Of a DNA stretch of 32,000 nucleotides, positions 4,584 through 31,953 are shown in pieces; position 1 is the stretch's first letter, and every line of letters starts with the position of its first letter. Source of the stretch: Thermoproteus tenax Kra 1 (GTDB taxonomy: Archaea; Thermoproteota; Thermoprotei; Thermoproteales; Thermoproteaceae). The notes beneath the pieces are model-generated. The model did not search any database. It was not told where the DNA came from and saw only the letters and a program-made list of their open reading frames with translations. The position numbers and the translations under genes are program-made. Where the stretch lies: assembly GCF_000253055.1 (NCBI RefSeq), contig NC_016070.1, forward strand, positions 1,320,001 through 1,352,000. The letters run 5' to 3'.

Positions 4584-4639
4584 TTCCACGGCAGGGCGAC
4601 GAAGAGAGAGTCTAATAGCGCGCTCCATACGGCAGATGG
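4584..4639. repeat. 56-nt copy (55/56 identical) of the core of the 7171-7460 RNA-like locus
   Basis: ttccacggcagGgcgacgaagagagagtctaatagcgcgctccatacggcagatgg matches 7224-7279 with a single g/a difference (4595 vs 7235). Same orientation, 2.6 kb apart. Confidence 0.9.
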
Positions 4640-6262: not shown

Positions 6263-6814
6263 TTGCCTAACATCCGCTATAGTCAGGTGACCTTCGCCAA
6301 ACCCTGCCTGATGCTCTTCTCGTGCCCAGGGGACGGGGGAGACACGCTGGTGCTCCACAGAGGCAGAGCGCTCCAGGCCTCCAAGGCGGACCCTCTGGTC
6401 AAGCTGTACGGGGCGTTGGACACGGCGGTCGCCTACGCCCACAAGGCCGCAGGCCTCCTCCCCCGCCCGCAGGCCAGAGTCATGAGGCTCCTCGCCTTCT
6501 CTATGACGGAGCTCGGCTTCTACGTGGCCACGGGCAGAGCGCTCCATCTGGACAACGCCGTGGAGCTCTACAGGAGGGCCCTCAAGCTCGCCTACTCGGC
6601 CAGCGGCGATCCCCCGCGCAGCTGGATAGCTTGCTCCTCGCCCGAGTGCTCGGCCGTGGACGAGGCGAGGGTGTGGGCGAGGTGGGCGGAGAGGAGGGCT
6701 GTGGCGCTCGGGGAGGCCGAGGCGGCGAGGCTTCTGAACCAGCTCTCCAACCTGATGTTCGAGGTCATGGCCACCCTCCCGCACATAGAGTACAGATCGA
6801 GGCCTCTGAGGTGA
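6263..6814 (+). CDS. ATP:cob(I)alamin adenosyltransferase, PduO type
   Basis: GDGGDTLVLHRGRALQASKADPLVKLYGALDTAVAYA matches the PduO/MMAB N-terminal pattern (GD.G.T.L..G....K.D.R..A.G..DE). The true start may be Met17 (6311). The gene is about two-thirds G+C, so all frames are open here. Confidence 0.75.
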   Translation: MPNIRYSQVTFAKPCLMLFSCPGDGGDTLVLHRGRALQASKADPLVKLYGALDTAVAYAHKAAGLLPRPQARVMRLLAFSMTELGFYVATGRALHLDNAVELYRRALKLAYSASGDPPRSWIACSSPECSAVDEARVWARWAERRAVALGEAEAARLLNQLSNLMFEVMATLPHIEYRSRPLR

Positions 6815-6927
6815 TCGATTTCGACGTTAAAGCGGTGTGATGCCGGGGTAACCCGCCACTCTCATCCGCCCCACACGGGGGTGTCGGTGTGGCGTCTCTA
6901 TCTACTTGCTTGTTTAAAAGCTTTTGT

Positions 6928-7137
6928 TCAAAACTCCACTATGTTTTTGCCCTTCTCTTTCAATTCGGCGAGTATTGCGTCGGCCTTGCTGATGGGTAGC
7001 CTTATGGTATAGAGATATCCAGAGAGGCGCGCCTTGAGTTTGGCCACGTTCTCCTCTGGAAACCTCTTTACCCTTATCTCCTCCGCCTTTTCGGCATACT
7101 TCCTCCATATTTCTACCAAGAACACCTCCTTAGGCAT
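6928..7137 (-). CDS. rpl38e: 50S ribosomal protein eL38
   Basis: 69 aa. ...KARLSGYLYTIRLPISKADAILAELK aligns with eukaryotic RPL38 ([26 protein letters not shown]). The TATA aaataataaaaag lies about 27 nt upstream of the ATG. Confidence 0.85.
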   Translation of the reverse strand: MPKEVFLVEIWRKYAEKAEEIRVKRFPEENVAKLKARLSGYLYTIRLPISKADAILAELKEKGKNIVEF

Positions 7138-7170
7138 GCCCGAGGATAAGTTAAGACTTTTTATTATTTA

Positions 7171-7460
7171 CGACTGAAGGTCCCGCCATTCAAGTCGGGG
7201 GTGGATTTAAGCTTGCCACATTTTTCCACGGCAGAGCGACGAAGAGAGAGTCTAATAGCGCGCTCCATACGGCAGATGGTCCCCGCCGCGATGCCCGCCC
7301 CAACCGCGGCCTCCCTCGTTAGGGCCGAGTGCCGCCCGGCCCCATGCCCGATAAGCCCGCGCCGGAGGTATCTTGGATGCCGATGAAGGCATGGGCGAGG
7401 AGAAACCCCGCCCTTTAGGGCGGGGAGGCGGAGCGCGGCCATGTGCATATAGGGCGGCAC
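7171..7460 (-). ncRNA. GC-rich structured RNA-like locus A (unknown family; paralog of 31491-31821)
   Basis: About 290 nt at roughly two-thirds G+C between two AT-rich promoters. It contains several perfect 8-9 bp helices (see findings). A TATA-like GATATAGG lies 25-32 nt upstream of 7460 on the minus strand. The only ORF is an implausible Arg/Gly/Pro-rich 111-aa frame. The strand is inferred from G-U pairs in the paralogous hairpin. Confidence 0.5.
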
Positions 7461-7497
7461 GCAAAATATTTTTAAATGGCCTATATCGCGTTGGGTC

Positions 7498-7827
7498 ATG
7501 GAATACGTCTATGCGGCTCTGTTACTACACTATGCAAAACAGGAGATAAGCGAGGAGAATCTGACTAAGGTCCTCCAAGCAGCTGGGCTTCAGCCAGATG
7601 AGGTTAGAATCAAGACGCTAGTCGCCGCCTTGAAGGAGGTTAACATCGATGAGGCCGTAAAAAGCGCCGCCTTCGCTCCAGTTGCAGCCGCCCCAGCTGC
7701 GGGCGCTCCAGCCCAAGCTCAAGCAGCCGGCCAACAACAAGCTGCTGGAGGCGAAAAGAAAGAGGAAGAGGAGAAAAAGGGTCCCAGCGAGGAGGAGATC
7801 GCTGGATCCCTCGCCGCACTGTTCTAA
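7498..7827 (+). CDS. rpl12: Ribosomal stalk protein P1 (aP1/L12e)
   Basis: [26 protein letters not shown]... is followed by an Ala/Pro/Gln hinge and an acidic tail ending [12 protein letters not shown]. The TATA tttttaaat lies about 25 nt upstream. Confidence 0.9.
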
Positions 7828-29206: not shown

Positions 29207-29306
29207 GTCTAATTATTGAAAGATTAAATACACCTTATTAATGAGGGGTGCGCCGAGAGATCGATGAATCAATTGCTTAATTTATGCGGTTTCACTCGCG
29301 TGACCC

Positions 29307-29538
29307 GGGCACCTCCTCCATCTGCTCGCAGGCGGGGACTGGTGAGGGGCTTGCCCTTAAGTCGCTTCTCTGCCTCTACTGATACAGATGGAGGCGGGGG
29401 GGGGGGGGACATAGCCGCCGTGATAAACAACGAAAGGAGGGTGCCGGAGGTGCTCGCGGAGGGCCGCGCGCACTCCGGCCCCAGGGCCTCGCGCCCAAGG
29501 TATTGTGCCGATTAGGGCGCAAGCAAGGAGGAGGTCCC
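29307..29538 (+). ncRNA. GC-rich structured RNA-like locus D (unknown family)
   Basis: A 12-bp terminal helix (29307-29319 / 29527-29538, one bulged C) encloses four hairpins plus an inner 5-bp closing helix. One hairpin is a 15-bp stem (29443-29479). The TATA cttaatttatg (29276-29286) is centred about 26 nt upstream of 29307. A G-U pair in the AGGGG-CUUG-CCCUU hairpin favours the plus strand. Confidence 0.45.
29396..29408. repeat. G13 homopolymer tract
   Basis: Thirteen consecutive G residues were counted directly, inside locus D. Confidence 0.95.
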
Positions 29539-29589
29539 AGAGCGCGATGCCGGTAGTAATCGACTAGGGATAGATGTTTAATGTGGCCT

Positions 29590-31437
29590 CTATAGTTGTT
29601 TATACGTCGGTCTCTCCGATAATAATCTCGGCATATATAACGGCCTCTTGGGATAGCCTTTGATCTCGCTTTTAATAAGCGATATCAGCTCTTGATGCGT
29701 CATCTGACGCTGCGTGCCGCCTCTTATCCTCACCGTGAGAGTCTTAGATTCGACCTCCTTATGCCCTATGACGACAATATACGGTATCCATTCCCTTTCG
29801 GCGTCGCGTATCCTCCTTGAAAGCGTCTCGTTTCTATCGTCGATATCCGCTCTGATATCCGCCCCTTCGAGCTCGTCGGCAAGCTTAAGCGCCTCCTCCA
29901 GTTGCTCTCTATTGATCGGAATTATTCTTACTTGAACGGGCGAGATCCAAGTCGGAAGCCGCGGCACCTGTCCCCTTTTCTCCATGAGGGCTGCTGTATC
30001 AAACAACGCAAAGAGGTATCTCTCAACGCTGCCCAATATGGCCGTATGGATTATTACAGGATATCTTATCTTATTTTCATCGTCTATATATTTGATATTG
30101 AACCTCATCGCGTTGCCGACATCTATCTGGAAGGTCGCAATCTCCCTCGGCCGTCCCAACTCGTCTATTATGTGGAACTCCACGTTGAGAACCCAGTAGT
30201 ACTTCTGCTCTGGCAGTATCCTCAGCAATATTGGCTTGCCCTCGCGCTTGGCCAACTCAATTAGATAGTCCTTGTATCCCCTATAGAACTCGGCTGTTAC
30301 GTTATATAATGAGACGTAATCTCGTCCAATTTTTCTTATTTCTTCAAATATTTTATTATGTAACTTATAGGTTACCTCAATTGCTTGTTTTAAATCTTTT
30401 GTGAAAATATGAAGGTCTGGCATATAAAATCTCCTTAGTCTAAACAGGAGAACAGTTTCGCCGGGTTGTTCGTATCGGTACGAGTCCGCCACTTCCAACA
30501 TTCCGAAAGGCAGATTCCTGTAGCTCACGACCCAGTCTCTCACCATGGCAAACTGTTGGAAACATGCGGCATAGCGGAGTATCGATTCAGTGTCTGCTTC
30601 TACTATGTACAGACGTTCCCCGAATAGTTTAGCATGGGTCTCAATGGGTCTCTCGCTCAGCTTGAACATATTAGTGCCTCTTATCTTGAATATGGGTATT
30701 CCGAGAGACTTCGCGACTTGGTAGGCGTAGTCCTCCACCAGTTCCATCATTATTGTGGCATCAGGCCCATATCTCATGTGGCCCACATCGGACATAGGTT
30801 CCCACTCGAAGCCAAAACGTTTTACATACTCTATGTATTTTGGCTCGCCGCCTGGCAACTCCCTTTTGAATACCTCCTTATCTACCAGAGCTTTTAGATC
30901 GGGGTATTTATCCAACGGATAGTCGGCTGGATTGTACTCTTCACCCTCAGGCGACAGAATAAGATAGATATCAGGAGCTGCGCGCTCGGCTTGAGCTTGC
31001 GGCCTTCCGCTGAAAAGCTCCGGCTTGTACGAGTAAGATCTGCTGAGCTCAGAAAGAGGATGCCCTATACATTTTATTTCAAATGATTTATAATATCCAA
31101 ATGGAGCTTTTAACACTTTAAATTGATTAAATCCATTTAATATATCGAATAACTTATTCAATATTTCTCTTGAGGTATAGGGCTTTGCTAAATTGGGCGA
31201 TAGATGGGCGTATGGATATATTACTATTGTTTGAGCGTCCACCTTCTTAGCAACCTCAACAATATCTCTTGAGATAGCCGCAAGATACGCCTCGTCGGGC
31301 TTATCGCCCTCCTCAACAGTAATAAACGCAACGAGGGCATTATCGGCATTGCCTGAGACAGGGTCATCCCTGATATCTAACGCCGGCTCCTTTGGCTCCC
31401 ACCTAAAATATTGGGCATGTATCAGGAGCACGCGCAT
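29590..31437 (-). CDS. thrS: Threonyl-tRNA synthetase, full-length archaeal form with N-terminal editing domain
   Basis: Class II core motifs and a C-terminal anticodon-binding domain are present. The ORF-track start at 31566 runs through the GC-rich upstream block. Met44 (31437, MRVLLIHAQYFRWEPKEP) is the typical archaeal ThrRS start and lies about 28 nt from the TATA at 31460-31470. Confidence 0.9.
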   Translation of the reverse strand: MRVLLIHAQYFRWEPKEPALDIRDDPVSGNADNALVAFITVEEGDKPDEAYLAAISRDIVEVAKKVDAQTIVIYPYAHLSPNLAKPYTSREILNKLFDILNGFNQFKVLKAPFGYYKSFEIKCIGHPLSELSRSYSYKPELFSGRPQAQAERAAPDIYLILSPEGEEYNPADYPLDKYPDLKALVDKEVFKRELPGGEPKYIEYVKRFGFEWEPMSDVGHMRYGPDATIMMELVEDYAYQVAKSLGIPIFKIRGTNMFKLSERPIETHAKLFGERLYIVEADTESILRYAACFQQFAMVRDWVVSYRNLPFGMLEVADSYRYEQPGETVLLFRLRRFYMPDLHIFTKDLKQAIEVTYKLHNKIFEEIRKIGRDYVSLYNVTAEFYRGYKDYLIELAKREGKPILLRILPEQKYYWVLNVEFHIIDELGRPREIATFQIDVGNAMRFNIKYIDDENKIRYPVIIHTAILGSVERYLFALFDTAALMEKRGQVPRLPTWISPVQVRIIPINREQLEEALKLADELEGADIRADIDDRNETLSRRIRDAEREWIPYIVVIGHKEVESKTLTVRIRGGTQRQMTHQELISLIKSEIKGYPKRPLYMPRLLSERPTYKQL

Positions 31438-31490
31438 TAGGTGATTCCTCGCTCCCTCGTATATAATTTTGGCCCCTTGTGGCGCCCGGC

Positions 31491-31821
31491 CTCCGTGTGG
31501 GCGGCCCCAGGTGTACTCGGAGCGGGGCCCAAGCACGCCGAGGATGCCAAGAGAGGTGGTGAACATCCAGCCGCCGTAGATTTCGTATGAACCTCTATCC
31601 GCTCCACTGTGGGAGTCTCACCGGTTGCCCTCTCCGGGGCTGATGGGAGAGACCACGACTGGATGCCGCGGCGAAGCGGACATCGCGGCGGGGCACCCCA
31701 GCTGACCCCATCCCATTGTGTGAGAAATAAACTATCATCGACTCTTTCTTCATCGCTATGCCATAGAAGATGTGGCTTGCTTAAAATCCATCCCCGATTT
31801 GAAGGGCGAGGCTTTCGGTTG
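31491..31821 (+). ncRNA. GC-rich structured RNA-like locus B (paralog of locus A)
   Basis: The TATA tatataatttt (31460-31470) is centred about 26 nt upstream. 31740-31821 aligns with the reverse complement of 7171-7254 at about 78% identity. 31665-31697 aligns with the reverse complement of 7278-7310. The terminal hairpin 31795-31821 is maintained by G-U pairs only on this strand. Confidence 0.45.
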
Positions 31822-31953
31822 CAAGTTCACATCCAACGATCACTCGCCTAATGATAATATGGGCTGATGCCCTAATTCTCCTCAATACGACAAGTATACA
31901 ATCCTATCTTAAGTAGAAAGCTTTTATACTGGAGCGATTTGCCCTCTCAGCAA

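Follow-up and report, generated by a model that had tools for sequence, protein, structure and literature searches.

The stretch of DNA analysed here, the window, comprises 32,000 nucleotides (nt) of Thermoproteus tenax, and its proteins carry the T. tenax Kra1 accessions CCC82127 to CCC82160. It contains the divergent genes of the ribosomal proteins L38e and P1, whose start codons lie at 7137 (minus strand) and 7498 (plus strand), and the gap of 360 nt between them holds a GC-rich element, elemA. This element probably derives from an IS200/IS605 transposon, as a relic or an internally deleted form that encodes no protein, is similar to the palindrome-associated transposable elements (PATEs) and is oriented on the plus strand. 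The features of the locus are the following.

6928-7137, minus strand: L38e ribosomal protein gene (CCC82134), left neighbour, 69 residues, 100% identity to T. tenax L38e
7153-7168, minus strand: TATA box of L38e, outside the element, kept in all empty-site relatives
7168-7171, plus strand: TTAC, candidate target motif, directly 5' of the insertion
7172-7452, plus strand: inserted element elemA, about 281 nt, delimited by empty-site comparison, boundaries +/- 1-2 nt
7464-7478, plus strand: TATA box of P1, TTTAAAAATATTTT, outside the element, kept in all empty-site relatives
7498-7827, plus strand: P1 ribosomal protein gene (CCC82135), right neighbour

A sequence-only reading of this DNA had picked out positions 7171-7460 as a non-coding stretch of about two thirds G+C in surroundings near 50%, bracketed by TATA boxes, and had proposed that it is the gene of a structured RNA on the minus strand. 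The composition is as described, with 65.2% G+C in 7171-7460 compared with 50.7% in the window, 48% in the L38e gene and 55.5% in the P1 gene. The stretch is also non-coding, since the annotation is empty between CCC82134 and CCC82135 and the paralog of the element, elemB, carries insertions and deletions (indels) between strains. Neither the protein collection nor the annotation contains the open reading frames (ORFs) of the element, and a concatenated six-frame query found no homologs. A protein-coding element was rejected on these grounds, as the ORFs are neither annotated nor known and the only blastx match, obtained with the right part, is a read-through tail of tnpB, the last 14 residues of a Thermococcus TnpB. 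AT-rich boxes do stand on both sides, but they are not promoter evidence for the GC-rich stretch: they are conserved in relatives that lack the element, which indicates that they are promoters of L38e and P1, both leaderless genes, and not a promoter of the stretch itself.

The comparison set consisted of 34 L38e-encoding loci from Thermoproteaceae genomes and of 20-kb regions of T. uzoniensis (L073) and of another Thermoproteus species (L074). In six loci of this set (L001-L004, L073 and L074), L38e and P1 likewise diverge from each other and each TATA box is kept, but the boxes are separated by only 11-55 nt and the element is wholly missing. Given these short spacers, the approximately 281 nt at 7172-7452 represent a T. 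tenax-specific insertion between the two promoters. At the empty site of L003 and L074, TATTTAA is directly followed by GGCGGCAC; T. tenax has TATTTAC, then the 281 nt that begin with GACTG and end with CATATAG, and then the same GGCGGCAC. The sequence-only reading had held that a lack of conservation in related genomes would argue against an RNA gene, and the same site is empty in six Thermoproteus genomes. Comparison of the filled site with the empty sites of the relatives revealed no target-site duplication, and no terminal inverted repeats were found in elemA. IS200/IS605 elements are expected to have neither. The TTAC that precedes the insertion is also found 10-11 nt upstream of the left-end hairpin in two reference elements, L071 and Thermococcus kodakarensis L070, and elemB has TTGC at the corresponding place. 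Judging from L071 and L070, TTAC is a candidate target motif of the transposon family.

The left half of elemA is repeated in the T. tenax genome. We named the repeated part module M, and its copies and fragments in the window are listed below.

7168-7319, plus strand: module M, about 150 nt, consisting of the left-end hairpin and about 115 nt of other sequence, shared with elemB
31655-31824, minus strand: elemB, second copy of M, adjoining the start of the threonyl-tRNA synthetase (ThrRS) gene, with a left-end-like hairpin at 31784-31820
7224-7279, plus strand: internal 56-nt piece of M, duplicated at 4584-4639
4584-4639, plus strand: third copy, a fragment (56 nt of M), 98% identical direct repeat

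M and elemB lie on opposite strands and are 79% identical (BLAST expect value (E) 1.6e-12; local alignment). The copy at 4584-4639 lies between UbiA and HAD, where the intergenic DNA is expanded in T. tenax alone, by about 125 nt; this spacer measures 140 nt versus 12-16 nt in T. uzoniensis and L074. T. tenax thus has at least one more copy and one fragment of M within 38 kb, and over the approximately 52 kb of T. tenax DNA covered, elemA and elemB have nothing but the left half in common. A search of 40 kb from T. uzoniensis and the other Thermoproteus species yielded no additional copy.

The only statistically strong features of the element are IS200/IS605 transposon-end hairpins, and they have plus-strand orientation. 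Our covariance model of such ends, R1, is based solely on six hairpins, left- and right-end, of three reference elements of other archaea (L012, L071 and L070), and it was run without filters on 82 kb of DNA from T. tenax and Thermoproteus. The first of these, in an uncultured Thermoproteaceae archaeon, is a complete IS200/IS605 element at 440-2400 of L012, with tnpA at 585-1037 and tnpB at 1034-2353; L071 is a second Thermoproteaceae-type element and L070 contains the tnpB of T. kodakarensis. The hairpins of T. tenax are as follows.

7397-7435, plus strand: R1 match 1, 33.2 bits, E 2.7e-10, the top match in the 82 kb; a right-end-like hairpin with flanks, whose stem-loop CCCCGCCC-TTTA-GGGCGGGG is at 7406-7425
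7406-7425, minus strand: R1 on the opposite reading of the top match, hairpin only, 14.3 bits, E 0.012
31784-31820, minus strand: R1 match 2, 18.4 bits, E 2.5e-4, exactly at the end of M in elemB
7172-7210, plus strand: R1 at the homologous end of M in elemA, 7.3 bits, E 8
7176-7204, plus strand: degenerate left-end-like hairpin GAAGGTCCCGCCATTCAAGTCGGGGGTGG, aligning with the left ends of L071, L012 and L070 and with elemB

The right-end hairpin of elemA and the right end of L012 are identical in 25 of 27 bases, and the left end of elemB matches that of L012 in 25 of 28. The left ends, aligned by eye and with MAFFT, read:

L071: TTAC, 10 nt, then AGCCTCGCCCTTTAGGGCGGGGATG
T. kodakarensis: TTAC, 11 nt, then GAAAGCCTCATCATTTGGGGTGGGGATGC
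elemB, minus strand: TTGC-AACC-GAAAGCCTCGCCCTTCAAATCGGGGATGG
elemA, plus strand: TTAC-GACT-GAAGGTCCCGCCATTCAAGTCGGGGGTGG

After TTAC or TTGC, the motif GAA-AGCCTCGCC...CGGGGATG is common to L071, L012, T. kodakarensis and elemB and is degraded in elemA, whose candidate left end was identified because it is homologous to the significant one of elemB. A left-end-like and a right-end-like hairpin in direct orientation, in a non-coding element with neither terminal inverted repeats nor target duplication, would constitute the architecture of a PATE.

The right part of elemA (7365-7446, plus strand) resembles the 3' end of tnpB. The Rfam family HgcC (RF00062) matches it with 24.4 bits and E 0.0014, below the gathering score of 50; however, genuine tnpB 3' ends also remain below this score, with 29.2 bits in L012, 28.5 in L071 and 43.5 in L070. 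A second family, sot0042 (RF02656, gathering score 88), matches the terminal hairpin only (14.7 bits, model positions 154-173), and reaches 38 bits in L012, 41 in L071 and 36 in T. kodakarensis L070. This restriction to the terminal hairpin indicates that most of the scaffold of an omega-RNA, the guide RNA of TnpB, is missing from the element. The CCCGCCCTTTAGGGCGGGGAGG hairpin also ends tnpB ORFs in viral contigs. On sequence grounds the right part is related to the class formed by HgcC, sotRNA and omega-RNA, below the thresholds for membership. The suggestion that the locus holds a very divergent known RNA therefore stands insofar as its right part resembles this class, and falls insofar as the scores are below threshold and the resemblance is on the opposite strand.

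Both families match the same tnpB 3'-end regions (L070 2660-2850, L071 2696-2859 and L012 2229-2383), in Thermococcus as in Thermoproteaceae and always below their gathering scores. HgcC and sot0042 thus appear to describe one kind of RNA, the omega-RNA or re-RNA of TnpB, and to miss most of its real instances. The function of HgcC is listed as unknown, and the joint matches support its reading as a family of the TnpB guide-RNA type. HgcC had already been linked by Gomes-Filho et al. to the right-end loop of IS1341-type elements and PATEs, and transcripts exist of haloarchaeal PATEs in which the left and right ends are fused (PMC4615843). The L012 element stands directly upstream of L38e, which shows that the same transposon family struck the L38e upstream region independently; this region is thus a repeated insertion target in Thermoproteaceae. 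Separately, the L012 element displays odd internal direct repeats, one of 36 nt at 442 and 1316 and one of 24 nt at 476 and 559.

We also compared the window with Logan assemblies of T. tenax-like strains, in which both elements are present. Along 24.6 kb the strains show 114 differences from the window (0.46%), which corresponds to 99.5% identity. The most variable 200 nt of this comparison are found in elemB, where 31545-31739 (195 nt; L054 6570-6770) has 10 differences, three of them single-base indels, about 5% versus 0.46%; the strains do not differ in the final 85 nt of M or in the DNA flanking elemB. The hypervariability of elemB could be due to gene conversion by unseen copies or to a local mutation hot spot. 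In elemA, 7379-7497 is 96.6% identical between strains, and the 5' arm of the right-end hairpin reads CTCCGCCC in the strains, which gives a U-G pair on the plus strand and a C-A mismatch on the minus strand. The minus-strand 8-bp hairpin put forward for this position is therefore broken by a variant that keeps pairing on the plus strand. The reference elements also have a T-G wobble in this hairpin arm, at position 3 and not at position 2 as in the strains. As far as sequence comparison can tell, the pattern agrees with repeat DNA that evolves fast, whose copies may undergo gene conversion and whose meaningful strand is the plus strand, and does not fit a constrained RNA on the minus strand.

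The surroundings of elemB show two further peculiarities. The ThrRS ORF at 29590-31566 (minus strand), of 658 amino acids in the strain assembly, is probably 43 codons too long and runs into elemB; a likelier start is 31437 (MRVLLIHA...), which a TATA box (31459-31469) precedes by 22-32 nt, as in a leaderless mRNA. Beyond this gene, at 29240-29585, lies a third long GC-rich intergenic stretch of about 340 nt with a run of 13 G at about 29396-29408, which has no Rfam match and no similarity to the elements studied; six strain differences fall in 29400-29599.

The DNA to the left of elemA was rearranged as well. A segment of about 300 bp (6838-7137, minus strand), containing L38e and the gene of the H/ACA-like small RNA (sRNA) PyrR205, shows an in-place inversion in T. 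tenax, T. uzoniensis and several Thermoproteus metagenome-assembled genomes, according to a comparison of L005, L007 and L021 with L001-L004, L073 and L074. In Pyrobaculum and Thermoproteus sp. AZ2 the order on one strand is cobalamin adenosyltransferase, PyrR205 (in Pyrobaculum), L38e and P1. The gene that adjoins PyrR205 in the window (6263-6814, plus strand) is the cobalamin adenosyltransferase gene, with PF01923 in the T. uzoniensis ortholog. The strain unitigs are broken near 6317, inside this gene, which fits the duplicated pair TTX_0290/TTX_1504. These two T. tenax genes are duplicated at >95% (PMC3189178).

According to the explanation that we favour, the element that inserted between the back-to-back promoters of L38e and P1 in the T. 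tenax lineage, after TTAC and without duplicating its target, is a transposon derivative. It carries a degenerate left-end-like hairpin on one side and a well-preserved right-end hairpin on the other, and its right end lies inside sequence like the 3' end of tnpB, where the scaffold of the guide (omega) RNA is encoded. Mobilisation, if it is ongoing, would need TnpA in trans, and any RNA of the element would be a plus-strand transcript of omega-RNA type.

Several observations weigh against an IS200/IS605 origin. Taken alone, the left-end hairpin of elemA is not significant (the R1 match of 7.3 bits), and the left-end boundaries of the reference elements and their TTAC motif are putative. After the right-end hairpin stands GAGGCGGAGCG, where GAGGAGGTCAG is usual, and 17 more nt (7436-7452) separate this hairpin from the conserved flank, so that the right boundary of elemA is not clean. 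A right end was not detectable in elemB and the parts of the two copies outside M (7320-7452 and 31470-31654) are unrelated, which means that they do not form a uniform family of identical miniature elements. The approximately 115 nt of M past the hairpin had no match; a 20-mer of M was not found in viral contigs, its 10 matches in metagenomes were all chance matches that lacked extended similarity, and blastn against phage and plasmid collections matched only the hairpin. No parent element was located either. The window contains neither tnpA nor tnpB according to a Pfam scan of ten of its larger ORFs and to the other gene assignments, and a search for TnpB homologs that might represent a T. 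tenax parent returned mainly Thermococcus and metagenome proteins and none from T. tenax, whose genome has only five transposase ORFs or fragments (PMC3189178).

A functional role is compatible with the transposon-derived origin. Under this possibility, which we consider unlikely, elemA encodes a functional small RNA on the plus strand, an orphan omega-RNA of HgcC-like type that guides a TnpB encoded elsewhere or acts as a regulator between the ribosomal promoters; it would be a functional extension of a transposon relic and not a contradiction of it. The HgcC score of the right part is close to those of real Thermoproteaceae tnpB 3' ends and the strain hairpin still pairs on the plus strand. 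In addition, RNAs derived from Halobacterium PATEs are expressed and have a growth phenotype (PMC4615843), and PATEs often encode omega RNAs that are acted on in trans (PMC10055086). Nevertheless, sot0042 recognises only the terminal hairpin, far below the 36-41 bits of real elements, the scaffold is mostly missing and the canonical GGTCAG/GTCAA end is degraded; moreover, no tnpB was seen and the element diverges faster between strains than the genome average. It is distinctly unlikely that the element, or the strain-invariant 85-nt end of the module, is expressed as a T. tenax-specific small RNA, either an orphan omega-RNA for a TnpB elsewhere or a domesticated RNA that influences both ribosomal promoters. 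If this were true, a crenarchaeon would have turned the decaying end of an IS200/IS605 element into a functional RNA, and if it is transcribed at all the element would be a candidate orphan guide RNA.

The mosaic composition of elemA, the presence of its 56-nt fragment, copied with 98% identity, in a second intergenic expansion limited to T. tenax, and the variation of the spacer at this site among species, which consists of 11-55 nt of unrelated GC-rich sequence, would also agree with filler or scar DNA formed in patches during break repair or rearrangement, with no transposition and with an end hairpin that an old insertion sequence happened to supply. The inversion of L38e and PyrR205 adjoins the site, but it is shared with species that lack the element, which indicates that inversion and insertion were separate events. 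Left- and right-end-like hairpins in direct orientation at the two sides of a single TTAC-adjacent insertion form an architecture specific to IS200/IS605 derivatives, and we regard filler DNA as very unlikely.

The proposal of the sequence-only reading was a new family of non-coding RNA (ncRNA) on the minus strand (plus strand for elemB), with M as its conserved 3' domain and a variable 5' domain. The helices on which it relied all exist in the sequence, at 7452-7460/7329-7337 (9 bp), 7418-7425/7406-7413 (8 bp, UAAA/UUUA loop), 7388-7395/7341-7348 (8 bp), 7430-7437/7259-7266 (8 bp) and 7305-7310/7285-7290 (6 bp), and the hairpin at 7171-7197 is present, though imperfect. Perfect 8-nt inverted repeats are modestly enriched, with 6 observed versus 1.3 expected and about 2% of shuffles reaching 6, and this enrichment speaks for the family, as do the position of each of the two paralogs downstream of an AT-rich box and the strain-invariant last 85 nt of M in elemB. 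Three one-sided changes between elemA and elemB in the terminal hairpin all give G-U pairs on this strand, and the consensus fold contains one compensatory pair (UUCGUCG/CGAC versus UUCAUCG/CGAU); any covariation, however, rests on two sequences only. Consensus folds of M from three sequences had comparable energies on both strands, the sequences being too few to separate them.

Other results contradict this proposal. The minimum free energy of the stretch shows no gain over dinucleotide shuffles (z = -0.86 on the minus and -1.15 on the plus strand), and the 9-bp helix is at chance level, being found in 25% of shuffles, with one arm (7453-7460) in flanking DNA that is also present in species without the element. 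The long-range minus-strand helices have no comparative support, and one of them pairs the element with flanking DNA. The stretch thus lacks what is expected of a generic conserved structured ncRNA, as it is absent from six Thermoproteus genomes, with no copy in 40 kb of two of them, and its fold is no more stable than chance. Furthermore, the AT-rich boxes belong to the neighbours, and elemA and elemB have 5' domains that bear no relation to each other and are hypervariable, with indels. The other strand carries the strongest motifs, which are transposon ends, and one of these loses its 8-bp minus-strand hairpin in the strains. With the site empty in six relatives and transposon ends on the plus strand, the GC spike is not supported as the mark of a stand-alone structured RNA gene of the minus strand, and we find such a family highly improbable.

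Known RNAs were searched for with Rfam, as the sequence-only reading had advised. At gathering thresholds the only match in the window was PyrR205 at 6838-6896 and none fell on the locus, and a permissive scan of 7050-7600, with E up to 10, returned no match to signal recognition particle (SRP) or RNase P RNA. ARAGORN found no transfer RNA or fragment of one in the window. A C/D-box or H/ACA sRNA was rejected as well, as no box motifs were seen when the element was read by eye and PyrR205 is a separate neighbouring gene. The SRP RNA, including the permuted form of Thermoproteus, had no model match; its permuted T. tenax gene lies between ppdK (TTX_0683) and ppa (TTX_0684) and is missed by standard models (PMC4731332). 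The model of RNase P RNA type T (RF02357) gave no match at its gathering score anywhere in the window, nor with E relaxed to 10 in 7050-7600; this model, now part of Rfam, had detected one type T RNase P RNA in T. tenax, at a score close to the training range of 124-167 bits (PMC3579882). The chance that the locus encodes an SRP or RNase P RNA in strongly diverged or rearranged form is therefore negligible. GGGCUUAUCGG on the minus strand does resemble the 3' strand of RNase P P4, and standard models did miss the permuted SRP RNA gene; but the permissive scan matched no model of either RNA, and the published genes lie elsewhere (PMC4731332, PMC3579882).

A GC spike between ribosomal protein genes of a hyperthermophile is thus not always a missing housekeeping RNA, and a false lead has been removed. 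If elemA and elemB are what we propose, PATE-like relics of IS200/IS605 are now documented in T. tenax, whose genome was described as almost free of mobile elements.

Among known systems, the permuted SRP RNA and the type T RNase P RNA of Thermoproteus are likewise GC-rich, measure about 200-310 nt and were once missed by standard models; unlike elemA, their genes lie at other loci and are conserved across species. The MITE-like (miniature inverted-repeat transposable element-like) sRNA elements of Pyrobaculum calidifontis are, like elemA, a lineage-specific, multi-copy, non-coding intergenic repeat in Thermoproteaceae (PMC6009581). They have terminal inverted repeats and a core like a C/D-box sRNA (PMC6009581), whereas elemA has neither when both strands are read by eye. 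In elemA, the terminal hairpin CCCCGCCC-UUUA-GGGCGGGG, with GAGG after it, and an upstream hairpin, with GAUGA after it, both align to HgcC; the element differs from HgcC and sot0042 in its scores (24.4 versus 50 and 14.7 versus 88), in a scaffold that is mostly missing and in not being attached to a tnpB. PATEs are exemplified by the Halobacterium VNG_R0052 locus (PMC4615843) and by PATE-like elements in Geobacillus (PMC10055086), and no report of them in Thermoproteus was found in the literature searched. Unlike PATEs, elemA has a degraded left end and a noncanonical right boundary, and its genomic copies share the left half only. Like PATEs, it is short (about 280 nt), non-coding and intergenic, has a right-end-type hairpin and a candidate left-end-type one in direct orientation and neither terminal inverted repeats nor a target duplication, and its right part is like the tnpB 3' end that contains the omega-RNA region.

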